Position numbers and translations under genes: made by a program. The notes under the pieces were generated by a model. It saw only the letters and a program-made list of their open reading frames with translations. It had not been told where the DNA came from and ran no database searches. DNA of 13,783 bases from Candidatus Brocadiia bacterium (GTDB lineage: Bacteria > Planctomycetota > Brocadiia > SM23-32): the NCBI GenBank assembly GCA_046538485.1, contig JBKHIT010000090.1, positions 1 through 13,783 on the forward strand, read 5' to 3'. Positions within the stretch are counted from its first letter, which is position 1, and every line of letters starts with the position of its first letter. This document shows positions 1-13,783 of this stretch, piece after piece.

Positions 1-54
1 GTTTTTCTACTTAAATCGAAGAGGCAACTGTCCAATTCACGCTGAACCAGTACA
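1..54 (-). mobile_element. Terminal inverted repeat / end of a probable IS3-family insertion sequence (continues beyond window)
   Basis: Minus strand reads TGTACTGGTTCAGCGTGAATTGGACAGTT from position 54. This matches the 5'-TG...TTGGACA pattern of IS3-family IRs and begins where ComF-like similarity stops. Confidence 0.7.
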
Positions 55-222
55 GTTCCCCGTCACTCGCGAGGCTGTTAATTCGGGGAAACACCGCTGA
101 CAGAGATACGGATGGCCGTCGGTTTTCAGTGGCTTACCGCAATGATAGCAATGACGCGGATAAAACCAATCCAGAACGGGATCGAGTTTATTCAAAACTG
201 TTTCTTGTAGTTTACCCAGCAC
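37..222 (-). pseudogene. comF: 5' fragment of ComF-family (double zinc ribbon / phosphoribosyltransferase) gene, truncated by IS insertion at about 54
   Basis: LDWFYPRHCYHCG...YLCQRCF is the typical ComF N-terminal zinc ribbon. A GTG start at 222 lies just after the HDAC stop. The frame ends at 37-39 inside the putative IS end, with no PRTase domain. Confidence 0.7.
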
Positions 223-226
223 CGTA

Positions 227-1144
227 TCACTTTTCCCCAAGCCGCCCGGCGTTCTCTGTAACCGCACATACCGTGCCGTAGTGAATCTTTACTGTGTCAT
301 TGAGATCCGGGGCGTAACCTCCCGCGAGCATTACGGCCACAGGTAGTTGCCGCTTACTACATTCCCCCAGCACCAGGTCGTCCCTTTGCCGGAGATCTTT
401 TATTGATAACATCAGAGAACCAAGCTGATCTTTTTCATACGGATCGGCTCCAGCGACGTAGAACACCAGATCCGGATCATGGTTTTCAAAGGCTGGAATT
501 ACATTGGCTTCCAGAGCCTGTAGATATCCCTCTCCCGAACAATAATCGTCCAGCCCTGTATCGCAATCGCTCTGTCGTTTCAGTGGGTAGTTATTTTCCT
601 GGTGAATGCTGAACGTAAAAACCGCCGGATTACCACGGAATATATACGCCGTCCCGTTCCCCTGATGAAGGTCGCAATCGACGATGAGAATTCTTTCTGC
701 GACACCTTCTTCAAGCGCGTTGGCGGCGGCTACGGCCACATCGTTAATGTAGCAGAATCCTTCAGCCTTTGCCGGAAAGGCGTGATGGAATCCACCGGCG
801 AGATTCATCGTCATCGTTTCCTGTTGGGCTGCCAACCTTGCGGCCAACAAGCTGCCGCCGGCGCCGAGGATGAACGCTTCGATAATACCTTTTGAGATCG
901 GCATTTCGCTGGATATGGTCCGCGTGGTATGACGGTAAGAGAACAGATCGTCGAGGTACGCGGGCTCATGCACCAGTTCCAGCTGTTCTCTGGAAGCCGG
1001 TTCAGGTTCAACAAAATCATCCGCTCCCACAACTCCTTCCTCGACCATGCGTTCGTACAGGAGTTCGTATTTTTCCGTACGGAAAACATGCTCACCGATG
1101 TCGCAATAATAGCCGGGAAGATATATGAATTTTGGTTCTGGCAT
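227..1144 (-). CDS. Histone deacetylase family protein (Zn-dependent, HDAC11/class IV-like)
   Basis: Motifs GGFHHA, GFCYIND, DCDLHQGNG, FSIH, AGADP and LAGGY. The ATG at 1144 (MPEPKF) is preceded by AGAAGGG and is preferred over the ORF-track start at 1213. Confidence 0.93.
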   Translation of the reverse strand: MPEPKFIYLPGYYCDIGEHVFRTEKYELLYERMVEEGVVGADDFVEPEPASREQLELVHEPAYLDDLFSYRHTTRTISSEMPISKGIIEAFILGAGGSLLAARLAAQQETMTMNLAGGFHHAFPAKAEGFCYINDVAVAAANALEEGVAERILIVDCDLHQGNGTAYIFRGNPAVFTFSIHQENNYPLKRQSDCDTGLDDYCSGEGYLQALEANVIPAFENHDPDLVFYVAGADPYEKDQLGSLMLSIKDLRQRDDLVLGECSKRQLPVAVMLAGGYAPDLNDTVKIHYGTVCAVTENAGRLGEK

Positions 1145-1441
1145 TGCAGCCCTTCTTGTGCTCAAAAATATTCTCAGCGTGCAAAGTTTAAACGAAAGTC
1201 CAAAGAAGGACAAATCAGCGGAAAATGTCAGTGACCAGTGGAGCGAGAAAAACGGAATGTCGATTTTGCCGATCGGCAGACCCCGCTGAATCGCTATCGT
1301 GCAAGCAAGAGAGATTGACTTTGGAACTGTTTAGCCCAACCTGTAAGCCGAGCTGGACTCGATGAGTCGATGCCTATATGCTATTGTTACGCTGATTCGT
1401 AACGCGGTTCCCGTGGCTGAAAACAGAACGGAGGTATGAAA

Positions 1442-2593
1442 ATGCCTGAAAAAACCTACGGTATTGGAATGCTCGGATGTGGTTTCATCGGCAAAGTGCA
1501 CGCGTACTCTCATCACGTAATGCCATATTACTATGAAGATTTGCCCTGGAATATGCGTTTCGTTGGCGTTTGCACGTCCCGGGACGAGTCGGCCCGGAGC
1601 GCAAAAGAGGAAATCGGTTTTGAGTTTGGGACAACGGAACCGGAAGAGGTCATTAGACACCCCGATGTCGATGTCGTTCATATATGCACACCGAATTCAC
1701 TGCACCTTGACGAACTGCTGTCCGCTATCGACGCCGGGAAGAACCTCTACTGTGATAAGCCCGTGACGTCGAACTGGGAAGAGGCCAAAAAAGTCTTGAA
1801 GGCTCTGGAAAACTATAACGCGACGCATCAAATGACGTTTCACAACCGGTTTTTCCCGGCCACCCTCAGGGCAAAAATGCTCATGGCGGAGAACTTTGTG
1901 GGTGAGGTCACGTGTTTCCGGTGCGAGTATCTCCATTCGGGAAGCGTCGATCCGGATAAGCCACTCGGCTGGAAACTGGATGCCTCGATGGGAGGAGGCG
2001 TGATTAATGATCTGGCAACACACGTGATCGATCTGATACGACACCTGATTGGTGACTTCACGGAGGTCGCGTGTTCGACCCGGATCCTCCATGATACTCG
2101 TCCATCCAGAAAAGACCCCGACAAACGTGTCCCGGTTGAAGCCGAGGATCACGTTATCTTAACTCTGCATCAAGAAAACGGGGCGATCGGAACGATCGAA
2201 GCATCTAAGATCGCGACGGGAATGCAGGACGAATTGCGTTTTGAGATTCATGGCATAAAAGGGGCTCTGCGGTTCAACCTGATGGATCCCAACTGGCTGG
2301 AGATCTACAACCGGGACGATCCCGGCGAGCCCATCGGCGGGAAACGCGGCTGGAAAAAAGTCGAGTGCGTCCAGCGTTATCCCGAACCGGGCGGGAAATG
2401 GCCGGCCACAAAAGCTTCAATCGGATGGTTGCGGGGACACATCGCCAGTCTTTTCAATTTTATGAATTCTTTGCATCGTGCGGAGAAAGCGGAGCCAGGT
2501 CTGGAGGTCGGTGCGGAAATCCAGAGAATCGCCGCTGCTGCCAGAAGAGCGGACGAGTCCGGCCGCGTCGTACAAATCGGTGATATCCAATAA
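1442..2593 (+). CDS. Gfo/Idh/MocA family NAD(P)-dependent oxidoreductase
   Basis: Rossmann motif GMLGCGFIG, ICTPNxLH, CDKP (EKP variant) and GGGVINDLATHVID. SD GGAGGT at 1430-1435 favours the ATG at 1442; 1436 is an alternative start. Confidence 0.93.
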   Translation: MPEKTYGIGMLGCGFIGKVHAYSHHVMPYYYEDLPWNMRFVGVCTSRDESARSAKEEIGFEFGTTEPEEVIRHPDVDVVHICTPNSLHLDELLSAIDAGKNLYCDKPVTSNWEEAKKVLKALENYNATHQMTFHNRFFPATLRAKMLMAENFVGEVTCFRCEYLHSGSVDPDKPLGWKLDASMGGGVINDLATHVIDLIRHLIGDFTEVACSTRILHDTRPSRKDPDKRVPVEAEDHVILTLHQENGAIGTIEASKIATGMQDELRFEIHGIKGALRFNLMDPNWLEIYNRDDPGEPIGGKRGWKKVECVQRYPEPGGKWPATKASIGWLRGHIASLFNFMNSLHRAEKAEPGLEVGAEIQRIAAAARRADESGRVVQIGDIQ

Positions 2594-2603
2594 CAGGAGT
2601 CCC

Positions 2604-4037
2604 TTACGTCCCTTCCGCCTCTTGCCGTTCCTCTTGCAACACCGACAGTGGCTCGGGCTGAAAATCGTCCGGCAGGTGGCGCACAAGTTCCTCTTCATTG
2701 GCCGCAAAACGCGGATCAATTTCAACCTGTCCGGAAGACTTTTCGACGGGTGTCGTGTCGATACCTGCATTTTCAAGCCACCGCAGCCATTCCTGGCGAA
2801 GCAGTTTGCGGCAACTCTCCGGGCTGTCGGAGCCCTCAGCGTTTTTAACTGGAGCAAATTCGCGTTCGCGACGGGCTTCCACAAATGCACAATCGCTGAC
2901 ATGGGGCAGACAATCAAAGACGAACTTCTCGAACTTATAACATTCGCCCGGGCGGGCGTTGCCGTTTTCATCGAGATGTTCGTAATTCTTCCGGGCCACA
3001 TGCCAGGGGAGGGCGTCGTTCCGCCTGCCTATCTCGAGCGCGAACTCTGTATCGATAATGTGGACGGCGATGCTGCCGAATTTATAAAGGAGTTCCCCAT
3101 CCTTATCTGTCTGCTCGGCCAATTCATCCGGCAGATCGATGTATTCGATGATACCCGGTTGGTCGTTTTTCAGGACGGCGATCCCCAGGCCTTCCGACGG
3201 ATCGCGTTTGGGGATGACTTTGCAGGAAAAATCCGCATGCCGTCGCAGATGATGTCCTACGTACCTCTCGTCAGCAACCGTCACGAGCGGATTGTCGACC
3301 TGGAAATAACTGACTAAATCGAAACCCCTTTTGAGGAGATCTTCGGCGAGGCCACTTTCCGACAGCGCTGAGAAGACCCCGCCGTGTCCGTCGGGCCCTA
3401 CGAGCAATTTGCCTTTGTTTTTTAGCAGAAGTTGCCCGTCCTTACCCAGGATGGGATTGGTATTTTGGGAAAAGAAATGGACCGTATCTTTGCCCAGTCC
3501 AAAATAGTTTTTCGTTTCAAAGAAGTCTCTTGTCTGGTCATCGTTTGTCGGACTGGTCATTACAAGCCAGGGGATGGGAGTGTCGTATCGGCGCCGAGCG
3601 GCAAGGACTTTGCCAGCCAAAACGTGGAAAAGGCTTTTTCCGGTGACAGGCATTATAGGGTAGGCGCCTTTGGGGCCATCATAGCCGAGCCGCGTTCCCT
3701 GGCCGCCTGCCACCACGAGCGCGGCCACACGACCGGCTTCAAAAGCCTCATGGCCGAGGGCTGCAACATCCTCTTCTATCTTTTTTTCTTCAGCTGTTTG
3801 CGGCAACGTGTTGACCGGGGCCGGTTCGACCTCTTCAAAGCTAATCTCTTCTCCGGATCTGCCGATTTGTTGAGTAAGCCGTGAGACTTTGCCGAAATCG
3901 ATGTTTTTCAGTTGGCTCAGCAGCTGCTGTTTTTGTTCCGATGACAGATCGTCAATCCATTTCAGGACATGGTCCTGCCCGGCGGAGCGGACTCTTTGGA
4001 TGGTTTTTTGCTGTTTTTCAGAGGGTTTTTGGGACAT
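2604..4037 (-). CDS. UDPGP type 1 family nucleotidyltransferase, eukaryote-like UDP-N-acetylglucosamine pyrophosphorylase (UAP1-like)
   Basis: Motifs AGGQGTRLGYDGPKG, PDGHGG, QVDNPL, IEY, KFEKFVFD and EFAPVKNA. SD GGAGG lies upstream of the ATG. Confidence 0.93.
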   Translation of the reverse strand: MSQKPSEKQQKTIQRVRSAGQDHVLKWIDDLSSEQKQQLLSQLKNIDFGKVSRLTQQIGRSGEEISFEEVEPAPVNTLPQTAEEKKIEEDVAALGHEAFEAGRVAALVVAGGQGTRLGYDGPKGAYPIMPVTGKSLFHVLAGKVLAARRRYDTPIPWLVMTSPTNDDQTRDFFETKNYFGLGKDTVHFFSQNTNPILGKDGQLLLKNKGKLLVGPDGHGGVFSALSESGLAEDLLKRGFDLVSYFQVDNPLVTVADERYVGHHLRRHADFSCKVIPKRDPSEGLGIAVLKNDQPGIIEYIDLPDELAEQTDKDGELLYKFGSIAVHIIDTEFALEIGRRNDALPWHVARKNYEHLDENGNARPGECYKFEKFVFDCLPHVSDCAFVEARREREFAPVKNAEGSDSPESCRKLLRQEWLRWLENAGIDTTPVEKSSGQVEIDPRFAANEEELVRHLPDDFQPEPLSVLQEERQEAEGT

Positions 4038-4068
4038 GGGACCTCCGCTATCACAAGTTACAGGATTC

Positions 4069-4095
4069 TAGCCTGCATCTTACGGATGCAGGCTA
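4069..4095. repeat. Perfect 11-bp inverted repeat (hairpin) upstream of the pyrophosphorylase gene
   Basis: TAGCCTGCATC-ttacg-GATGCAGGCTA. Confidence 0.6.
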
Positions 4096-4468
4096 TGTAA
4101 AACGGCGCATGCCGTTTAAAAACATTGTAGCGTTCGCCTCGTTGCTGATCACTGATTTTAAGTTGTCAGATTTATGCGCCGTTTGTTTTTAGCTCGGATT
4201 TTTGGCTGAGAAGGGTTGTGAACGGTGTCCAATAAAGATTCTGCCCTGACTTGACAAAAAGGGCGTCCAATTATCCGTAAAATCCGGGCTAGTGTATCTG
4301 CTTCCCCCCGCGCACTCAATCAAATGCGCCGCCCGTGTGCCAGCCCGTCCGTGTCAACTCGTGCCCCTCCGGGTGCAACGTCCGTCAGTGCTTGACAGCT
4401 ACGGCCTTCCCTCCGTAGCATACTGACCGCCCGCTGGATATTCCTCAGGACTTTTTAAAAGAAAAATT

Positions 4469-5749
4469 ATGCTCGATATTAACCTTATACGAGAAAAACC
4501 CGATGATGTCAGGAAGGCCATGGAGAAAGTCGGCGCTGATCCCGAGCTGATCAATCGCATTCTGGCTTTGGACGAACAGTGGCGAGACTTAGTCTCCGAG
4601 AGTGAGGATCTTAAAGCGAAACGCAATCGTGACTCTGATAAGGTTCGGACGGCCAAAGATGACGACGAGCGTCAGCAGCTGATACAGGAACTCCGTGAAC
4701 TGGGCGACCGGATCGATAAACTCGATGAGCAAGCCGAAGAACTTCGGCAGGAACTCGATGAATTAATGCTCAATGTGCCGAATATGCCACACGAGGATGC
4801 GCCGGCAGGGGAGGACGAGAGCGAGAATGTGGTCCGCCGTGTCGAAGGCGAAAAGCCTGAGTTTGGGTTTAATCCCAAACCGCACTGGGAACTGGGGCCG
4901 GAACTCCAGATTTTGGATTTCGAGAGGGGGGTCAAGCTCAGTGGTTCCCGTTTCTACGTGCTCAAAGGACAGGGGGCAAGGCTCCAGCGTGCGCTTATCG
5001 CGTGGATGCTGGATCTGCACACCAGCGAGCACGGTTACCAGGAGGTCTATCCGCCAGCAATCGTGCAGTCGAAATGTCTCGTGGGGACGGGCAATCTTCC
5101 GAAATTCGCCGAAAATCTCTATCACGACGCCGAGGAAGATTTCTGGCTGGTGCCAACCGCCGAGGTGCCGCTGACGAACCTCCACCGTGAGGAGATCCTT
5201 GAAGGAGATGATCTGCCTCTGTATTACACGGCTTACACCCCGTGTTTCCGGCGCGAGAAGATGAAAGCTGGAACGGATGTCCGCGGTATCAAACGCGGGC
5301 ACCAGTTCGAGAAAGTAGAATTGATGAAATACGTCCGTCCCGAGAACTCGGACGCGGAGCTGAAAAAACTTATCGCGGATGCCGAGGAAGTCTGCCAGGG
5401 GCTTGGCCTTCCGTACCGCATTGTGGAAATGTGCACGGGAGATTTGAGTTTCGTCGCGGCCCGTAAGTTTGATATCGAGGTCTGGGCGGCCGGTTGTGGG
5501 GAATGGCTGGAGGTCAGCTCTTGCAGCAACATGCGTGGTTTCCAGGCACGACGCGCAATGATTCGCTATCGCCCCGGTCCGCAGGAGAAACCCGAGTTCG
5601 TTCACACTTTGAACGGCTCAGGTCTGGCTCTCCCTCGGGTGATGATTGCGGTCATGGAAAATTATCAGCAACCGGACGGCAGCATCGAGATCCCCGAGGT
5701 TCTGCAACCGTACATCGGGGGAATGAAAGAAATTGAGCCCGAGGGCTGA
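4469..5749 (+). CDS. serS: Serine--tRNA ligase
   Basis: MLDI start, N-terminal coiled-coil arm, LVPTAEVPL, motif 2 CFRRE...RGHQFEKVE, EVSSCSN and motif 3 HTLNGSGLA.PR. Confidence 0.98.
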   Translation: MLDINLIREKPDDVRKAMEKVGADPELINRILALDEQWRDLVSESEDLKAKRNRDSDKVRTAKDDDERQQLIQELRELGDRIDKLDEQAEELRQELDELMLNVPNMPHEDAPAGEDESENVVRRVEGEKPEFGFNPKPHWELGPELQILDFERGVKLSGSRFYVLKGQGARLQRALIAWMLDLHTSEHGYQEVYPPAIVQSKCLVGTGNLPKFAENLYHDAEEDFWLVPTAEVPLTNLHREEILEGDDLPLYYTAYTPCFRREKMKAGTDVRGIKRGHQFEKVELMKYVRPENSDAELKKLIADAEEVCQGLGLPYRIVEMCTGDLSFVAARKFDIEVWAAGCGEWLEVSSCSNMRGFQARRAMIRYRPGPQEKPEFVHTLNGSGLALPRVMIAVMENYQQPDGSIEIPEVLQPYIGGMKEIEPEG

Positions 5750-5858
5750 GCGGCCTTGTGTCTCGGCAGAAGCCAGTTACCATTCAGAAGATTATCCCGC
5801 GGCCGAGTGTTGGGGTGGTGCTGGCTACATTTAGCTGTGAGTTCAGAGGAAGAATATA

Positions 5859-8800
5859 ATGAAAAAATGGATGATCTTTGCATTTGTTCTGTTTGTGTCG
5901 GTGATGACTCTGACTGCTAAAGAAGGCAGCGACAAGTGGCCTGAAGTCCTCACGATTGACAATTTTGAAGACGGCATCGAGCGGTGGAAAAACGAGGATA
6001 CAGGCAAGCTGGAATCGCTGAAGGATGCAGTGCAGGGCGAAAGAGCCATGCGGTGGACGGCGGCAGACGATGGGCTCGGCCACATCATCTTCCGGAACCT
6101 GAAACGCGAAGAGATCGACTTCAGTCAATACGATCTGCTGGTGTGCGAGGTGAAGATCGCCGGTAAGCCCATCTGGAACCTAAACCCCATCGTCCAGCAG
6201 CGCCCGGCCGTCTACGGTTTCCGGGGGCTCTACTACAGTATCGACAGACTTCATCCGTTCGGCCGGTGGTTCACGCTCTCGCAGGATCTGAGCCGATGGG
6301 AGAATGCCTGGCCGGACTCCTACAACGCCACCAATCAGGAGTTCCAATTCGAGGTGCATCAACTCGCCGGGCCCGGGTCGACCCAGATCTATCTCGATAA
6401 CATCCGGCTGATGAAGAACCCGCTCGCCCTCCGCCCTTCCTATCCCGGGAAGTGGTTGCAGCAGCCTGACGGATCGCAGTTGACAGAGTTTGCGATTCCG
6501 CTTGAAAATACCGGAGAGAAAGCTCTGACGGTCCAGACATCCGTGGCTCAGGGCGGGACGCTGGACCGGTTCAAGGTTGAACTGCCGGATCCAGTGGAGG
6601 TCTCCCCCACAGATTCTTCATCGGAGGAGGCCCGCCGGACACTCCGCATTCGGATTAAGGCACCCGCCCCGATGATCGATGAGGTTACCCCGTGGTATGG
6701 TGAGACGGCCCGGATTGCCGTGACTGCCAAAGAGGCACCCGGACTGGTCCTCTACACCGACCTGGCCGCAGGCACGAAACCGGCCCGGCTCGAGCACCCG
6801 TCCATCGTCTGCTCGCCCGAACGGATGGCGGATCTGCGGAAACGTTACTCATCCGAGGATTCCCGCAAAAAGATGAAGCGGGCGTTTCGTAACATCGCCA
6901 GGCGGGGCGAGCAGGCGCTGTCCTATAAGCCGGAGTATCCCCCCGTCGCGGCGCAGGGACGCACCAAGGACCCGATCTCGGGGAAAAGGCTGGTGGAAAT
7001 CGACGTGCCCAACCGCCCCCAGCGGGTTTATCAAGATCCATCCTCGGGGCGTTCCTATTCGGGGCCGCTCTACGATGCGGGCATGCAGGGATGGAAGCAG
7101 AAACATCTGAAGAACGCGGCCGTCACTAAATCTTTAGGACTTGCTTTCGTGGTCACGGGACGCCGGGAATTCGCCGAGAAGGCGGCGGCAATTTTGCGGC
7201 CCTATATCAAGGTTTATCCCGATCTTCCCCTCATCGCCCCCAGGCAGGGGAGTCCGGTCGGGAGCGTCACCTCCGGCACCGTACCCATCGGTAGCACTTA
7301 CATGCGGGAACGGACCTGGCTCACTTCCATGGCCATCGGTCTGGACTGCATACGCCCGGCCGGCGTGCTCTCAGCAGAAGATCTTCGGGGTCTGGCGGAA
7401 AATGTGTTCAGCCCCTCAGCCCACAATATGATGGATCACAAGGTGGGGCCGATGAATCTGCAGTGGATGATTCAATCCGCCTCGCTGATGGCGGGGCTGG
7501 CGGCGGAACTCCCCGACGTGACCGCACGGGCACTGCACGATTCTCACGGGATCGTCCGGCTGACCGAGGTGGGGTTCCTGGATGACGGCAACTGGTGGGA
7601 GAATCCCAGCTACCAGAACGTGGCGAAGATCGCCGCCTACCCGGCGCTGGTGACCGCCATCCACAATGAAATCATCCCGTGGAACGAGCGCTTCCAGACA
7701 ATCCTTAAGGCATCCTACAAGCTTTACGGTCCCGATGGACGGAGTCCAACTCTGGGAACGGGCGGATGGACCAGCTACGGGATGGATAATGCGGCAATCG
7801 CCGCTCTGGCCGAGTGGATCACCGATCCCGAACTGGCCTGGGTGGCCTACAACCGCAAACCCCGTCCCCATCGAAATATTGGTCTCCTGGCGCTGTTCCG
7901 GGATGGCAAACCGCGCGTGCCGGAGGGAAAAGCTGTCAGCCCTATCCCCGACAAAACCACACTGGCCCCGGACTACGGCGGGATCTCGCTACGCATCCCC
8001 GGAACCGATCGCTACTCCTATTTCCATTTCGGGCGTGAGCTGACGCACGGCCACCATAACAAACTCTCCATCAACGCCTACGGCAAGAAAGGGTGGTACG
8101 CTCGCAACGTCATGGGCGGCTACGGGCATAACTTCGACGATTTCCTCCAGACCAGCGCCAGCGCTTCAAGCATCATGGTCGACGGCGCGGACGCCGACCA
8201 TGACACCGGCGAGTTGCTGTTCCACGGGTCGATAGCAGGAACTGAGGTTGCGTCGGGTCGGGAGATCGGCGCATGGAAGGACGTGGAGCACGAACGGACG
8301 CTGGTCCTGACGGAATCGATGCTGATCGTGATCGATCGCTGCCTGAGCGAAAGTAAACACGTCTACGATTGGCTCCACCACACCAACCGTTGCGGGTTGA
8401 AGCTGGACAAAACAAACGTGGGCAAACCCCGCATCGAACGATTTGGCAAATCCGTGCACTACGACTCGCTCCCACCGACCGGTCGTTTCACCGACAACCG
8501 ACCCGCCCGCTGGGACCGGGAAAACGGCAGCGGGCTTCTGACGGCTTCCCTTCCGGTCGGCACTCGATACGTCACACGGATCACGCACACATATCGTAAC
8601 CACGACAGCATTCTGTGGCGGCAGACGGGCAAGACGATGCGTTTTGCCGCCGCGTTCCGGCCGCTGGGCAAAGGCGAGAGCGGAAAGGTGCAGATCGAGA
8701 GTGTGCCGGTGGTGGACGCAGCCGGAAAGAAGGTGGGGCTGGAAGATGGTCAGGCCGTGCAGGCTCGCTCCGATCGCGAGACGCTCACCGTACTGGTCAA

Positions 8801-8873
8801 CTATTCCGGCAACCGTCTCAATGCGGGTCCCGTAAGCACAAAACAGCGCGTGGGCGTGAAGAGAGAAAAATAG
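5859..8873 (+). CDS. Secreted heparinase II/III-like / alginate-lyase-like polysaccharide lyase with N-terminal carbohydrate-binding-like domain
   Basis: Signal peptide MKKWMIFAFVLFVSVMTLTA. The N-terminal beta-sandwich-like domain runs IDNFED...IYLDNIRL. The helical domain has AAAILRPY and DDGNWWE. The C-terminal Hepar_II_III-like region has HGHHNKLSI...IMVDG. SD GAGGA is present. Confidence 0.75.
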   Translation: MKKWMIFAFVLFVSVMTLTAKEGSDKWPEVLTIDNFEDGIERWKNEDTGKLESLKDAVQGERAMRWTAADDGLGHIIFRNLKREEIDFSQYDLLVCEVKIAGKPIWNLNPIVQQRPAVYGFRGLYYSIDRLHPFGRWFTLSQDLSRWENAWPDSYNATNQEFQFEVHQLAGPGSTQIYLDNIRLMKNPLALRPSYPGKWLQQPDGSQLTEFAIPLENTGEKALTVQTSVAQGGTLDRFKVELPDPVEVSPTDSSSEEARRTLRIRIKAPAPMIDEVTPWYGETARIAVTAKEAPGLVLYTDLAAGTKPARLEHPSIVCSPERMADLRKRYSSEDSRKKMKRAFRNIARRGEQALSYKPEYPPVAAQGRTKDPISGKRLVEIDVPNRPQRVYQDPSSGRSYSGPLYDAGMQGWKQKHLKNAAVTKSLGLAFVVTGRREFAEKAAAILRPYIKVYPDLPLIAPRQGSPVGSVTSGTVPIGSTYMRERTWLTSMAIGLDCIRPAGVLSAEDLRGLAENVFSPSAHNMMDHKVGPMNLQWMIQSASLMAGLAAELPDVTARALHDSHGIVRLTEVGFLDDGNWWENPSYQNVAKIAAYPALVTAIHNEIIPWNERFQTILKASYKLYGPDGRSPTLGTGGWTSYGMDNAAIAALAEWITDPELAWVAYNRKPRPHRNIGLLALFRDGKPRVPEGKAVSPIPDKTTLAPDYGGISLRIPGTDRYSYFHFGRELTHGHHNKLSINAYGKKGWYARNVMGGYGHNFDDFLQTSASASSIMVDGADADHDTGELLFHGSIAGTEVASGREIGAWKDVEHERTLVLTESMLIVIDRCLSESKHVYDWLHHTNRCGLKLDKTNVGKPRIERFGKSVHYDSLPPTGRFTDNRPARWDRENGSGLLTASLPVGTRYVTRITHTYRNHDSILWRQTGKTMRFAAAFRPLGKGESGKVQIESVPVVDAAGKKVGLEDGQAVQARSDRETLTVLVNYSGNRLNAGPVSTKQRVGVKREK

Positions 8874-8951
8874 CCCGGGCATCGTATTGACGAGCTTTGG
8901 GACAAAGTGGAAGGTGTTTGTAGCCCGACTTTGGATCGCAGCCGGAGTGGA

Positions 8952-9147
8952 ATCTTCTTCACCTGCCGGACAAGCCGGCAGGGGCCGTTTGTTTTGGGGC
9001 ACGGATTTCTAGCCCACGAATCTGCGTCTCCTGCCACTCAAGGTGGCAGGGGGACGATAGCCTCGTACCGCCGGCGAGAGAAATTGGCCGGTTAGAGAAT
9101 GGCCGCCAGGCGCAGCCGCGACCCCCGCGGCCTCGCGCCGCGGGTGA
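8952..9147 (+). repeat. 196-bp direct repeat copy 1 (hairpins H1, H2, H3)
   Basis: Identical by eye to 10007-10202 (offset 1055). Confidence 0.95.
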
Positions 9148-9191
9148 AGGTGATTTCACCGAGCTATCTTCTTTTTGCGAAAGGAACTGCG

Positions 9192-9998
9192 TTGGTTTCA
9201 AAACCCATCTATAATGCTCACAACCTGGAATCGGCATACCAGCTCCGCTACGATTGGACCTGCTGGCCATCGCGGGAATCGACTTTCCCGCCCGACTTTG
9301 GACATTTAATAGAGCAGACCAAAGATGTCTGGGAGAACGATGGGTTGCGGTTGCTGGAAAGCAATGTGTCTTCGCAACAAACTCAGCTTCTTTTCAGCGT
9401 CACACCACAGGTCTCGGCCGTATTCTGCACGCAACGTGCCAAGGGCCGCCTTCAATATGCCGCACGGCAGGCTGGTTCTCCGATAAAGTTCAGCCGGAAG
9501 CTCTCCTTGCGCACGGTGGGTAACGCCCACAGCAAGGAAATGCTTAGATACATTGAGCGGCAGGCTCTTGACAGTCGTTATCTTGATCAGGGCTTTCGAG
9601 AAAGACTCGAGGATTTTGTCGTGGTATCCCCCGAAGTTGATCTTTCCCTCCCCACTGAAACTCGAGGTGGTCGATATTGGTATAATCTGCACCTGGTCCT
9701 TACCACTCAACAAAGATATCTCATCACTGATAGCGATCAGCTGGGCCGAATTCGCGATATGAGCTTCAAAATTGCCGACAAAAAGGGGTATAGAATTGCG
9801 TCTCTTTCGGCCATGCCGGATCATCTTCATATTGCCCTTCGCGGTAATATACAGCACAGTCCGGAGGAAGTCGCTCTCGGATTCCAGAACAATTTGGCAT
9901 ATGTGCTTGGCCAGAACGCCGTGTGGAATTACAGCTATTATGTGGGGTCTTTCAGTGAATACAATATGGAGGCCATTCGTCGTGCTTTGAGACCGTAG
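9192..9998 (+). CDS. tnpA: Tandem double-domain Y1 HUH transposase (IS200/IS605 TnpA-like)
   Basis: Domain 2: YNLHLVLTT, MPDHLH, VWNYSYYVGS. Domain 1: AKGR, LRTVG...LRYIERQ. A TTG start at 9192 follows SD AAGGA (9181-9185); the ORF-track start at 9099 lies within the hairpin block. Confidence 0.88.
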   Translation: MVSKPIYNAHNLESAYQLRYDWTCWPSRESTFPPDFGHLIEQTKDVWENDGLRLLESNVSSQQTQLLFSVTPQVSAVFCTQRAKGRLQYAARQAGSPIKFSRKLSLRTVGNAHSKEMLRYIERQALDSRYLDQGFRERLEDFVVVSPEVDLSLPTETRGGRYWYNLHLVLTTQQRYLITDSDQLGRIRDMSFKIADKKGYRIASLSAMPDHLHIALRGNIQHSPEEVALGFQNNLAYVLGQNAVWNYSYYVGSFSEYNMEAIRRALRP

Positions 9999-10006
9999 GG
10001 AGCGGG

Positions 10007-10202
10007 ATCTTCTTCACCTGCCGGACAAGCCGGCAGGGGCCGTTTGTTTTGGGGCACGGATTTCTAGCCCACGAATCTGCGTCTCCTGCCACTCAAGGTG
10101 GCAGGGGGACGATAGCCTCGTACCGCCGGCGAGAGAAATTGGCCGGTTAGAGAATGGCCGCCAGGCGCAGCCGCGACCCCCGCGGCCTCGCGCCGCGGGT
10201 GA
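10007..10202 (+). repeat. 196-bp direct repeat copy 2
   Basis: Identical to 8952-9147; starts 9 nt after the transposase stop. Confidence 0.95.
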
Positions 10203-10271
10203 GAGAGATTAGCCGGCTAGAGAATGGGCCGTCACGCGCAAGGACGACCCCCGCGGCCTCGCGCCGCGGGT
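10131..10271 (+). repeat. Two diverged tandem ~70-bp units (A 10131-10200, B 10201-10271), each ending in hairpin H3
   Basis: Both read GAGAGA.ATT.GCCGG.TAGAGAATGG...CGACCCCCGCGGCCTCGCGCCGCGGGT. About 10 differences, all 5' of the invariant hairpin segment. Confidence 0.9.
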
Positions 10272-10317
10272 GAAGGTGATTTCACCGAGCTATCTTCTTT
10301 TTGCGAAAGGAACTGCG

Positions 10318-10450
10318 TTGGTTTCAAAACCCATCTATAATGCTCACAACCTGGAATCGGCATACCAGCTCCGCTACGATTGGACCTGCTGGCCATCGCG
10401 GGAATCGACTTTCCCGCCCGACTTTGGACATTTAATAGAGCAGACCAAAG
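10318..10450 (+). pseudogene. Truncated second copy of the transposase 5' end (about 44 codons)
   Basis: Identical to 9192-9324. It diverges after CAGACCAAAG and the frame stops at 10482. Confidence 0.9.
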
Positions 10451-10474
10451 GTGGGGAACGAATCTTCGAGCTTC

Positions 10475-10483
10475 TGTTATAAT
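10475..10483 (+). promoter_or_regulatory. Putative extended -10 promoter (TGnTATAAT) upstream of the prepilin-like gene
   Basis: TGTTATAAT is a perfect consensus match; a second TATAAT lies at 10581-10586. Confidence 0.4.
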
Positions 10484-10609
10484 AAGCATGGAGAAAACAA
10501 CGGTGATCTACACGCACGAATATACGAAACACGCGTGTACGCCGAATGATACTGCGGTAGCTGTGTCCTTATTTCTGGATTATAATATTTTCTTATGAGG
10601 GAAAGGGCC

Positions 10610-11413
10610 ATGTATAAACAATCTTTCCATAGGAAACCTGGCTTCACGCTCATAGAATTGTTGGTGGTCATTGCCATCATCGCCATCCTGGCAGCGATGC
10701 TGATGCCGGCGCTGGAGCGGGCACGCGAAGGGGCTCGCCAAGCTGCGTGCAGAAGCAACCTGCACCAGATTGGACTGGGGGGTATGATGTATCAGAACGA
10801 TTACGATGGAACATTGCCCATCAGCACCGAGTGGAGTCAGTCTTTCGGCCCCAAACTATACAGTAAGGAGTATGACAACGGGGGGGGTAATGATAACATA
10901 TGGGGCGAGGAATTCGTCTACCTGGCCTGCAATTATTGCGGGGCGCAGGACTATCCGAACAAACCTCGTCCCGGCCCTATCGGCGTATTTTGGTGTCCGT
11001 CCAAGGAGTTCAAAGAAGATTTGAAGATCGCGAACCAACCGTATGTCGCGGGCAACGCCGTGGCCATTCATTATGCGCGTGATGGGCAGGCCTACCCGCT
11101 CTCACAGGATGTCCAGGACGAATCGAAGGATGTCTACGGTGGCGAATATGACACCGGTCCGGTGCGGCCGATGAAAGCAATGAGCCCCAGCAGGTGGCCG
11201 GTATTCTTCGACGAAGAGGTGTATTCAGACGACCGCTACGGAGTGGTGGACAACCATCCCGATAAACGACTGAACGCTCTGTACATGGACGGCAGCGTCG
11301 ACAGCCAGATTGGCGACGTAGGATTCCGCGGTAATAATTACGGCCAGCCGAACGGAAGTTTCGTTGTCTGGTTCCTGCCCTACGTCCGAACCGCACCCAT
11401 GCCCTACCGTTGA
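10610..11413 (+). CDS. Prepilin-type N-terminal cleavage/methylation domain protein (DUF1559 / H-X9-DG-type, PVC family)
   Basis: [32 protein letters not shown]...C.SNL.QIG, FWCPS and C-terminal [15 protein letters not shown]. Start is 10610 or 10595. Confidence 0.92.
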
Positions 11414-11500
11414 ATCGGGCAAAAACATCTTCTGAGCGCTTTCCTGGCGTCAGTGCAGAGAGTTCCTGTGGCGATCTGCTGCCCCGGCAATCTCCTCCTT

Positions 11501-11995
11501 CTATCTGTACCTCTCCCCCAAAAGAACGACACCGTGTTCAGCCATCATGTCCGTCCGCTGAAGGAACTCGTAGTCGGACGTGCGGAATAGCTCTCGTTCG
11601 AGCGCGTTCTGCAGACGCGCACGGTTTTCGGCATGCGCGGGATCCTCAGCCAGATTTTGAAGATCGTACGGGTCCGCAACCGTGTCGATGAGGGAGATCG
11701 GTTCCCAGGAATCTTCAGCTCCTTTGATCGCGTAGATATAGCGTCCGTCGTAGATCCCGCGCCAGGGGGACTGGTTGAGGCGAACCTCATGCTGGTGTGG
11801 ATAGAGTCCGGTCTGCACAGTGGCCCGATACGGGCAGCACACGGGAGAACTCGACACGCAGTTGGTGTATCGCACCCCGTCGGCGGCCAAACGGTCGAAG
11901 TTAGGAGAAATCACGTCGGAATTGCCGTAACAATTCAGCGCCGACCATCGGTGCTGGTCGGACAGGAGGAAAAGGATGTTCGGTTGTTTGTCCAT
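11501..11995 (-). pseudogene. Sulfatase gene with large in-frame internal deletion (164 aa)
   Basis: The N-terminal PNILFLLSDQHR and FGly motif CCPYRATVQTG join directly to the C-terminal WRGIYDGRYIY...DPYDLQNLA. The central catalytic region (e.g. GKWH, SDHG) is absent. Confidence 0.8.
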
Positions 11996-12120
11996 AAGCG
12001 GCGATTATCGTTCTTCTATGTTGAACATTGACAACAGGGCCAAAACGGTCACTGGCCTCACAGGAGAGCGGCTAATGTATCAAAACTACTCTCCCGGCAC
12101 TCTTCGGAAAAACGTGACCA

Positions 12121-13188
12121 TCAGGTCTCTTCCACCGAATCCGGGGGCACCTCGCATGGCAGCAACCAGCGGTCGCGCTTGATGAACCGGCCGTTATGGA
12201 AGGTCTGGCCGATCGTGCCCCGTTGCTCCAGGTGATCAAAACAGCTACGCATGCATCCGCGTGATCCCTCGATACCGTAACTGCCTGCCTCGCCCCAGAT
12301 TTGCAGGCGATGGTGGCCCTCGATCACGTGGCCGGAGGGGAACCGTTTCGAAGCGCGCCAGGTCCCGGTGGACATGGTCCAGGCGAGTTTGTAGGCCGCT
12401 TCCTCGCTCATCTCCTGCTCGGTCACATCAAAATGCCAGCCGGGCAACTCCCGGTGGATGAACGGCGAGGTCATGGGATCGCCGCCGTGATAGCTCAGGG
12501 TACACCGTCCCATGTGGACGTCCCCCCATTCGTATTCGTACTCGCCGATGCGCACCGATACGGTCTTACCTTCGCGCTGATGCGGTATGGCGCAGGCCGA
12601 ACACCCCTGGACGCACGACATGCAGCGATCGCAGATCGTACCGGGCTCGATCTGAGGATCGGGCTCCAGGTCGGCGTCGGTCAAGATCGCCGCCAGGCGG
12701 ACCCGCGGCCCGAACTCGGGCGTAAGAAACACCTTGGCCCATCCCATCTCCCCCAGACCGGCGGCGACGCCGGCCAGGCGAACGTTCAGGTTGACGTCGG
12801 GCGCGACCCCGCCGGGCCGAAGCGGCTCCCCGCTGGGATCGAAGTCCTCGGGCGTCGGCGACGGATAATACGGCACGGCCTCCCAGCCAAAATCCTCGAT
12901 GTAACACGCCGTCTCGAACATGGGCGTATGGATGAACGTGGTGTTGAGCTGGCCGTGATAACCAAAATACGTGTAGCTCGGCCAATACGTGCCTTCCTCG
13001 ATCCCTCGCCACGTTCCGCGAGGAATGCGTCGAGCCACCACGACCACCGATCTGACCTCCGGGAAGATGGTGGCCGGATGCATGTTGCGAGGGGCCTCCT
13101 CAAACCGCTCGATACTGGCGATCCCGCAGAGGTCGAGCCCCTGGTCCAAAGCAAATTGTTTAATCGTCGCAGCGTCGATTGCGCTCAT
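12121..13188 (-). CDS. Epoxyqueuosine reductase (QueG)/reductive dehalogenase-like cobalamin Fe-S protein
   Basis: GLDLCGIA, AGVAAGLGEMG, LTPEFGPRVRLAAILTDA, CDRCMSCVQGC and GCMRSC. The ATG at 13188 has SD GAGGAG. Confidence 0.8.
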   Translation of the reverse strand: MSAIDAATIKQFALDQGLDLCGIASIERFEEAPRNMHPATIFPEVRSVVVVARRIPRGTWRGIEEGTYWPSYTYFGYHGQLNTTFIHTPMFETACYIEDFGWEAVPYYPSPTPEDFDPSGEPLRPGGVAPDVNLNVRLAGVAAGLGEMGWAKVFLTPEFGPRVRLAAILTDADLEPDPQIEPGTICDRCMSCVQGCSACAIPHQREGKTVSVRIGEYEYEWGDVHMGRCTLSYHGGDPMTSPFIHRELPGWHFDVTEQEMSEEAAYKLAWTMSTGTWRASKRFPSGHVIEGHHRLQIWGEAGSYGIEGSRGCMRSCFDHLEQRGTIGQTFHNGRFIKRDRWLLPCEVPPDSVEET

Positions 13189-13202
13189 CGCGCACTCCTC
13201 TC

Positions 13203-13733
13203 TCACTCAATCTCATAGTTCGTTTCGATGCGACTCTTTCCATTCTGCAGCACCCATGCGGGACGCTTGCGGAACGGATTCATGTAATCGCAGCTGAGAC
13301 GTCCGGAGCGTTCCAGGTAGTCGTAATACGACCGAATGCACACGGCGGCGATGCGGTCCGGTTTCCCGCTGGGATGCCGGTTGTTCGGCCGGGCACCGTT
13401 CTGGCATTCGGCACATTTATCAAAATCAATGCCGGCGACCGTCATGCTCTGTCCGCAGATGTCCAGCGTCTGCTCGCTCTCGGGGTCGATGGCGCCGAGC
13501 GGGCAAAAACGGGCGAACTCGGCCTTGCGCGGACAGATCTCGGGAGGACGAACCGGGGTCGGCTCCAGCTCGGCGTCGGTCAGTATGATGTAGAAGCGCT
13601 GCCGCGTGCCGAATTCCGGCGTGACAAAAGTCTGAAGGTAACCAATCTCGCCGAGTCCGGCCCGGACCGCCGCATCGTCGAAATCAAGCAGCACGTTGGG
13701 AGCGGGCTGGCCTTCACGGACCGGGCACCCTAG
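13203..13733 (-). CDS. 3' part of a second QueG-like paralog; 5' part is outside the window or cut by an insertion
   Basis: PVREGQPAPNV, AAVRAGLGEIG, VTPEFGTRQRF.IILTDAELEP and CPLGAI align with the downstream gene. The frame stays open to the window edge. Confidence 0.75.
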   Translation of the reverse strand, partial: LGCPVREGQPAPNVLLDFDDAAVRAGLGEIGYLQTFVTPEFGTRQRFYIILTDAELEPTPVRPPEICPRKAEFARFCPLGAIDPESEQTLDICGQSMTVAGIDFDKCAECQNGARPNNRHPSGKPDRIAAVCIRSYYDYLERSGRLSCDYMNPFRKRPAWVLQNGKSRIETNYEIE

Positions 13734-13783
13734 CCTGAACTTTACGGATATCCTGCCGTTATCTGGCGTAAGCAATGCTTTAG
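13730..13783. mobile_element. Possible IS terminus preceded by CTAG target site
   Basis: CTAG-CCTGAACTTTACGG. Paralog similarity is lost beyond this point, GC drops, and the 54-nt length mirrors the IS stub at the left end. Confidence 0.4.

Follow-up and report, generated by a model that had tools for sequence, protein, structure and literature searches.

Introduction

In the transposases (TnpA) of the IS200/IS605 insertion sequence (IS) family, the HUH motif and the tyrosine of the YxxxQ motif lie in the same subunit of ~130–150 residues, and active sites are assembled in trans: the tyrosine helix of IS608 is domain-swapped onto the HUH motif of the partner (PMC3597680, PMC3479197). The RAYT proteins, associated with REP (repetitive extragenic palindromic) sequences, are represented by Escherichia coli TnpAREP (PDB 4er8), described as a monomer (PMC3479197). 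Here we analyzed a stretch of 13,783 nucleotides (nt) from a Candidatus Brocadiia bacterium (Planctomycetota; contig JBKHIT010000090.1 of assembly GCA_046538485.1, positions 1 to 13,783), referred to below as the window, which carries a gene for a Y1 protein of 268 residues. By sequence and predicted fold, the protein is composed of two TnpA-like domains in one chain, and the resemblance is not due to chance; the first domain (D1) holds the tyrosine and glutamine and the second (D2) holds the HUH motif. Our best reading, which we consider likely, is that it is a REP-associated, RAYT-like nuclease or transferase acting on single-stranded DNA (ssDNA): a pseudo-dimer contained in a single chain and having one composite active site.

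Both domains share the fold of IS200/IS605 TnpA (IS608, ISDra2, and IS200; subclass 1.1 of Quentin et al., 2018), with structural Z scores of 10–12.7. The family to which the protein belongs also shares with these enzymes the DHLH form of the HUH motif, the YxxxQ form of the tyrosine motif, the KG motif (in D1) within the helix that follows the HUH strand and an association with DNA hairpins bearing a conserved 5′ element; by analogy, its active site would follow the logic of the trans dimer as well. Unlike classical TnpA, the subunits are fused and each lacks one half-site, leaving the HUH motif only in D2, the Y/Q motif only in D1 and, by prediction, one active site instead of two. Further, classical IS200/IS605 elements occur in several near-identical copies, often with tnpB, whereas this gene is single-copy with divergent paralogs and no TnpB among 87 neighboring open reading frames (ORFs); and where classical elements have two subterminal hairpins, the family has hairpin arrays together with dispersed clusters that lack the gene.

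The likeness to RAYT/TnpAREP (class 2 of Quentin et al., 2018) lies in the low-copy gene, the inverted flanking hairpins with a conserved 5′ foot and the dispersal of the same repeats in the host genome (although copy numbers are modest here), as well as in the single active site per polypeptide that would be expected by analogy. The differences are substantial: the score with the NCBIfam model REP_Tyr_transpos is 14.2 bits, its cut-off being 80; the tyrosine motif is YIERQ in our protein and YIxxQ in the family, as opposed to the YxxxNP given for class 2 in Table 1 of PMC6006769; the structural match to 4er8 reaches only Z 5.0–7.0 (Z 7.0 for D1 modeled alone); the site of TnpAREP is built from a single domain and that of the family from two fused, degenerate ones; and the foot is AAWCT, not GTAG. 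Because model score, tyrosine motif and structural match all fail, we do not place the family in the RAYT class. It appears RAYT-like in its way of working but, as judged by sequence, descended from the IS200-type (YxxxQ) branch, with the trans-dimer logic kept in one chain.

A third point of comparison is class 3 TnpAY1, which according to the main text of PMC6006769 (Quentin et al., 2018) is found in Planctomycetes, Acidobacteria, and Proteobacteria and consists of single-domain proteins (median 178 residues) with NHVH and YV..EQ motifs and a CnGA foot. Planctomycetes hosts, a Q-type tyrosine motif, atypical flanking secondary structures and a REPtron-like arrangement are common to both, but family members have ~266 residues, DHLH in D2, YIxxQ in D1 and an AAWCT foot (268 residues, YIERQ, and AATCT in the window). 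None of the 12 subclasses in the main text of PMC6006769 fits the family; that study discarded “unexpectedly long proteins,” and members of the family may thus have dropped out of its classification. In the literature we searched, which included the main text of the same article, we found neither a fused, pseudo-dimeric or half-site Y1 protein nor an AAWCT-footed REP, and the repeats reported for PVC (Planctomycetes, Verrucomicrobia, Chlamydiae) bacteria in the text of PMC3733652 have GTAG and CGTC, not the AAWCT foot.

Two Y1 Domains in a Single Chain

The gene (9192..9998, plus strand; TTG start, TAG stop at 9996–9998), defined by its ORF and by homologs, encodes D1 and a linker (residues 1–152, 9192..9647; domain core at residues ~10–127) followed by D2 (residues ~153–268, 9648..9995). 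The Pfam model Y1_Tnp (PF01797) matches the whole protein in two stretches, with 55.9 bits against a cut-off of 23. When the domains were scanned separately, D2 gave 43.1 bits (E 5.4e-11, profile positions 5–115) and D1 18.4 bits (E 0.0025, profile positions 27–121); D2 also matched NCBIfam transpos_IS200 (57.2 bits, cut-off 55). For D1, a profile built from 46 sequences (the window and 45 loci) and searched against PDB sequences found eight IS200/IS605 TnpA sequences (ISDra2, IS608, and IS200 TnpA) with E values of 1.9e-5 to 1.3e-3, the next match being an unrelated one at 0.58. The alignment spans the whole domain, placing Y120 on ISDra2 Y132, Q124 on Q136 and KG on KG, with K/Q at the positions of both HUH histidines. 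The two halves can also be aligned with each other: hhalign of family D1 against family D2 (E 5e-5, probability 67%) set Q63/Q65 on H211/H213 and Y120 on A265.

Predicted structures point the same way. The full-length AlphaFold model had a predicted local distance difference test (pLDDT) value of 89.5 and a predicted template modeling (pTM) score of 0.88, with an independent Atlas model at pTM 0.89. D2, taken from the full model (residues 153–268), matched 15 TnpA structure entries at Z 8.2–10.4, and D1, modeled alone and with residues 21–110 mostly above pLDDT 90, matched the same 15 entries at Z 11.2–12.7, the next unrelated entry scoring Z 8.0. The two TnpA-like repeats proposed in a preliminary description of this DNA are thus borne out, including the Y1 fold of D1. 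Existing annotation is less specific: the Protein Atlas clusters for the protein give only a generic “Transposase IS200 like,” and homologs are publicly annotated as “transposase” or with the generic COG name RayT, nothing more specific.

The residues agree with that description down to the codon. D1 has QTQ (Q63-T-Q65, 9378–9386) in place of the HUH motif but keeps R82, K84, G85, and R86 of the KG motif and the helix with Y120 (9549–9551) and Q124 (9561–9563). D2 keeps MPDHLH, with H211 (9822–9824) and H213 (9828–9830), but has Ala265 at the tyrosine position, and the protein then ends (EAIRRALRP, stop). A near-perfect repeat begins at 9999, and we considered whether the missing D2 tyrosine could be a truncation artefact of it; this was rejected, as hundreds of homologs share the same end.

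Complementary Half-Sites Across the Family

A word-indexed search found at least 803 homologous proteins at E ≤ 0.001, mostly in Planctomycetota, Verrucomicrobiota, Kiritimatiellia, and Lentisphaerae, with full-length members of ~266 residues and 48–57% identity to the window protein. An exhaustive search of 50% representatives gave 578 matches, 333 of them at E ≤ 1e-10; short representatives consisting of D1 only or D2 only also appeared there and are split genes or fragments. Conservation was assessed in a close set (the query and its 120 best homologs, 231–360 residues, 48–57% identity, n = 121) and in a diverged set of 90 representatives of 235–440 residues, taken from 150 listed after the 60 outside that length range were excluded.

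The tyrosine half of the site is kept in D1 and the HUH half in D2. Y120 is present in all sequences of both sets (121/121 and 90/90) and Q124 in 118 of 121 close sequences (the other three have H) and 89 of 90 diverged ones, the glutamine of YxxxQ being the third metal ligand. K84, R86, and R102 are each invariant in the close set, where H211 is found in 120 and H213 in all 121; among the diverged sequences, 81 have H-x-H in D2 and the other nine have disrupted, scrambled or missing C-terminal halves. The missing halves of the site are lacking just as consistently. At the HUH position of D1, residue 63 varies, and as residue 65 the close sequences have Q in 99 cases but H in only two; H-x-H is found there in a single diverged sequence (1/90). 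At position 265 of D2, tyrosine occurs in none of the 90 diverged sequences (one has a tyrosine two residues earlier) and is not among the six commonest residues of the close set (R, I, A, S, N, K). The division of HUH and tyrosine suggested for the window protein therefore holds family-wide. The same description had named the tyrosine of SEYNM (Y257) as an alternative nucleophile, which the diverged set disfavors: Y250 and Y257 of D2 are highly conserved in the close set, but Y257 is tyrosine in 77 diverged sequences, phenylalanine in five and another residue or a gap in eight, and since phenylalanine cannot be a nucleophile, Y257 is unlikely to be catalytic and is probably structural.

The KG motif (R82-K84-G85-R86, 9435–9449) is invariant in D1 and replaced at the corresponding place in D2 (9882–9896), which has an invariant N233 instead, so that the complementary loss extends past HUH and tyrosine. 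Identity to the window protein over 77 loci averages 43% for D1 and 56% for D2, and thus both halves are maintained.

The models suggest how the halves may fit together. The segment with Y120 and Q124 (residues 111–130) is predicted with confidence only when D2 is present: pLDDT over this segment is 90/82 in the full model vs. 52/48 in D1 modeled alone. D2 ends in a short, vestigial helix of low prediction confidence (pLDDT 76, then 44). A proline located seven residues past the HUH position has been described as a key residue of the dimer interface (PMC3479197), and its equivalent in D1, P72, is invariant.

REP-Like Hairpins Around the Gene and in Other Genomes

The window contains seven perfect 8-bp hairpins of one style, four in plus orientation (at 8962, 9030, 10017, and 10085) and three in minus orientation (at 9124, 10179, and 10250). 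Upstream of the gene, unit h1 (8951..8982, plus strand) is made of the foot AATCT at 8951–8955 and the hairpin CCTGCCGG-ACAAG-CCGGCAGG at 8962–8982, and unit h2 (9019..9050, plus strand) of AATCT at 9019–9023 and the hairpin CCTGCCAC-TCAAG-GTGGCAGG at 9030–9050. As ssDNA, the h1–h2 stretch has a folding energy of -26.5 kcal/mol (z -3.65). Unit h3 is inverted (9124..9156, minus strand; hairpin CCCGCGGC/GCCGCGGG at 9124–9144, with GCGAG as its minus-strand loop) and stands 48 nt ahead of the start codon, in the orientation that is commonest upstream of the gene at homolog loci. Downstream are a copy of h1 (10006..10037, plus strand) whose stem begins 19 nt past the stop, the usual place of a plus hairpin at homolog loci; a copy of h2 (10074..10105, plus strand); and two tandem copies of h3 (10179..10270, minus strand; hairpins at 10179–10199 and 10250–10270, 71 nt apart). 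AATCT occupies positions -11 to -7 of the plus-oriented hairpins, and AATCA is found there in minus-oriented h3.

Hairpins of the same kind accompany the gene in distant genomes. The first sign was in the translations: homolog ORF tails reading SPAGQAGRG proved to be translated hairpins. Where an ORF has no nearby stop (loci L016, L026, L030, L036, L050, L064, L067, and L077), it reads through the downstream hairpin, and such tails, which in some database representatives span up to three units (P0172), are repeat DNA in translation rather than protein features. Within 350 nt on either side of the gene, most of 80 loci carry such hairpins, often in arrays at 68–72-nt spacing. For statistics, perfect 8-bp hairpins were collected from the 400-nt flanks of 77 homolog loci and the window, giving 293 hairpins, with ACAAG (65), GCAAG (57), CAAG (40), ACGAG (36), and GCGAG (33) as the commonest loops. 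For the 218 with five-nt loops, the counts are 171 for A at -10, 182 for C at -8, 175 for T at -7, and 172 for C at -2; CC opens the stem in 217 and 215, and GG follows the stem on its 3′ side in 202 and 198. The consensus unit is an AAWCT foot 7–11 nt upstream of a GC-rich 8-bp hairpin with an RCAAG/RCGAG loop. Stems vary between genomes on both arms (CCTGCCGG, CCATCCGG, CCGGCGGG, CCACCGAG, CCAACGAC, and others), while loop and foot are kept.

The orientation of these units follows the gene. Going outward from the gene, the first hairpin upstream has minus orientation in 50 of the 74 loci with enough flank, and the first one downstream has plus orientation in 57 of 76; therefore both feet face the gene, as described for the E. 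coli REPtron in the text of PMC3333891.

The repeats also occur away from the gene. In the genome to which the window belongs, blastn placed the upstream element on nine other contigs, and 29 of 177 perfect hairpins with 8-bp stems and 5-nt loops belong to the RCAAG/RCGAG class. Alignment of 12 copies defined a two-hairpin element of ~120 nt whose similarity starts at AATCT, and about eight such dispersed elements, also starting at AATCT, lie on other contigs. In one homolog genome (L019), identical hairpins recur in minus-minus-plus-plus clusters that lack the gene, at 70-nt spacing, and in five other genomes a loose pattern gave 95–273 matches vs. 44–100 for the reversed control.

Copy Number, Distribution, and Surroundings of the Gene

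The genome holds one full copy of the gene and one 5′ fragment. A scan of genome contigs, with one genome per species, confirmed 213 loci, the best 80 of which were used for locus comparisons; five genomes among these 80 have two loci each, and the paralogs are 50–60% identical and have different stems. At E ≤ 1e-5, none of 87 neighboring ORFs, picked mechanically from 45 loci, matched TnpB or any transposase family. Neighbors are unrelated across the 45 loci and are housekeeping genes elsewhere as in the window (serS, a UDPGP-family gene, and a gene for a DUF1559 protein). The sole neighbor of mobile-element type among the 87 is a reverse transcriptase (RVT_1) ORF ~800 nt downstream of the homolog at a Pirellulaceae locus (L021:4590-6311).

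Other Y1 genes are present in the same genome. Three single-domain genes (C127:405-746, C127:1750-2091, and C7:406-750) have DDHVH/DHHVH and Y..NQEKHH, the signature of Quentin subclass 1.2, with other GC-rich palindromes alongside. Four more (C109:4324-4656, C90:47634-47975, C99:37613-37909, and C121:25254-25481) show motifs of the RAYT-like class 2, namely NHYH with YVHNNP, NHFH with YIHHNP, and NHVH. Hairpins of CTTGT/ACGAG loop style lie within a few kb of the Y1 gene on C109, and the one on C90 has its own repeat of ~65 nt on its flanks. Thus, several Y1-repeat systems coexist in this genome.

With an alternative in-frame ATG, at 9099, the protein would be 31 residues longer (299 in total), and this extension would cross a hairpin repeat; we preferred the TTG at 9192 because the N-termini of homologs begin there and an AAAGGAA box lies 5 nt upstream of it. 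Directly upstream of the repeat block is a 1004-residue ORF (5859–8873) whose N-terminus resembles a signal peptide and which matched no Pfam model at E ≤ 0.001. Around the gene itself, the segment 8944–9327 (h1, h2, h3 and the first ~45 codons) recurs with 97–98% identity at 9999–10453, immediately past the stop, as a direct repeat whose second copy has an additional 71-nt tandem unit with h3 and ends, with a duplicated 5′ gene fragment (first ~45 codons; 10318..10453, plus strand), at 10453, ~140 nt before the next gene. This looks like a recent tandem duplication of a 1055-nt unit, most of the second copy having then been lost.

Discussion

A TnpA-type homodimer with trans sites may have been fused head to tail, with each half then shedding the part it did not need. 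In the composite site that would result, H211 and H213 of D2 would hold the metal together with Q124, and Y120, on the helix after the D1 core, would be the nucleophile, forming a 5′-phosphotyrosyl link to ssDNA. To judge from the context, the substrates would be the REP-like units lying on either side of the gene and scattered in the genome: a folded hairpin would be bound on ssDNA, the strand nicked beside it and rejoined to another 3′-OH, as in RAYT/TnpAREP, and the repeats would be spread, amplified or rearranged as a result. As a monomer with one tyrosine and one HUH motif per chain, the protein would not be able to carry out the two-site helix-swap excision of IS608. We infer the catalytic activity, the position of cleavage, the geometry of the site and the role in disseminating repeats. 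Of the roles put forward in the preliminary description, that of a REP-mobilizing enzyme is backed strongly and independently by the hairpin repeats, both flanking and dispersed, whereas nothing specific speaks for a rolling-circle-like one.

Several observations weigh against this reading. D1 alone, at 18.4 bits, is under Pfam's own cut-off, and the proposed docking of Y120 on the HUH motif of D2 is derived from model confidence and from homology to the trans dimer. The inverted arrangement has exceptions: on the upstream side, the closest hairpin has plus orientation in 12 of the 74 loci, is unclassified in six and lacking in six, and on the downstream side it has minus orientation in seven of the 76, is unclassified in two and lacking in 10. 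In the window itself, the outer upstream units h1 and h2 stand in direct, not inverted, orientation to the downstream hairpins, because of the recent duplication. The 29 perfect hairpins in a genome of 5.19 Mb are a modest number, far under classical REP counts, although repeats may be under-assembled here because the assembly is 88% complete and in 143 contigs. Finally, the gene was found in only three of 60 relatives (3/30 in the same family and 0/30 in other families), a patchy distribution that suits a mobile element no less than a gene domesticated long ago.

The main rival explanation starts from that distribution: hairpins, gene and hairpins would move together as an autonomous, IS-like element, and the dispersed hairpins would be its miniature derivatives, the gene not being a domesticated REP-processing gene. 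The unrelated neighbors over 45 loci, the presence of the family in several phyla, the recent partial tandem duplication in the window (left flank and start of the gene, 97–98% identical), and the clusters of inverted hairpins in the L019 genome, which resemble the flanks of the gene minus the gene, would all be expected of such an element. The genome has only a single full copy, however; two-locus genomes (five, and these only among the best 80 of the 213 loci) hold loci that are 50–60% identical instead of near-identical IS copies; and a chain with one tyrosine and one HUH motif has no evident means of coordinating cleavage at the two ends. We therefore consider the autonomous element unlikely.

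Another possibility is that pseudo-dimers form dimers or higher oligomers, which would provide two composite sites and allow classical two-ended peel-and-paste. IS200/IS605 transposition is stated to require two sites (PMC3479197), and paired or arrayed hairpins at a regular spacing of ~70 nt could seat several proteins, but the classical dimer interface is already used within the chain, its proline being kept as the invariant P72, and we found no pointer to a second interface in this analysis, which leaves this arrangement quite improbable. A two-copy prediction of the full protein scored 0.00, with controls not run, and points neither way. That D1 is instead a DNA-binding or regulatory appendage to a D2 that catalyzes with another nucleophile, or that the whole protein is a catalytically dead hairpin binder, could draw on the missing HUH motif and sub-cut-off score of D1, the good IS200 match of D2 alone and the conserved Y250 and Y257, yet it can hardly be credited given an invariant Y120 and nearly invariant Q124 in the exact YxxxQ register of catalytic helices (hard to explain if non-catalytic), the phenylalanine at Y257 in five diverged members and the invariance of the HUH motif.

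Returning to the REP-associated pseudo-dimer, a broader interpretation is possible, though we advance it tentatively and would not yet favor it: the family may represent an independent second route by which a selfish transposase of IS200 type evolved into a REP-type system. Whereas TnpAREP became monomeric by refolding its tyrosine helix in cis, here the trans dimer would have been frozen in one chain and labor divided between the halves. D1 would supply the nucleophile and a hairpin-binding surface (R82, K84, R86, R102, and R107 are conserved) and D2 the metal site, and the domains may read different hairpins of a doublet, one as anchor and the other as substrate. If so, nature would have produced an asymmetric ssDNA recombinase in which two recognition modules serve one site.

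With its two fused IS200-type domains and their half-sites, set amid hairpin repeats, the protein seems to embody an undescribed design of single-site enzyme, one for cutting and spreading such repeats. In the PVC group, whose REP-like repeats have received little study, the family further defines a class of REP marked by an AAWCT foot and an RCAAG loop, and its at least 803 sequences with naturally varying stem specificities could serve for sequence-specific covalent coupling of proteins to ssDNA, of the HUH-tag kind. The trans-assembled site and the swap of the tyrosine helix are central to IS200/IS605 movement, and the movement of REPs by monomeric RAYTs is still unexplained, according to the discussion in PMC3479197. 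The family offers a natural experiment on both questions, a fused dimer in which one trans site would have been kept and the other discarded and which is tied to REP-like repeats: a defined enzyme, with one site by prediction, in which the capabilities of a single Y1 site on hairpin DNA can be studied.

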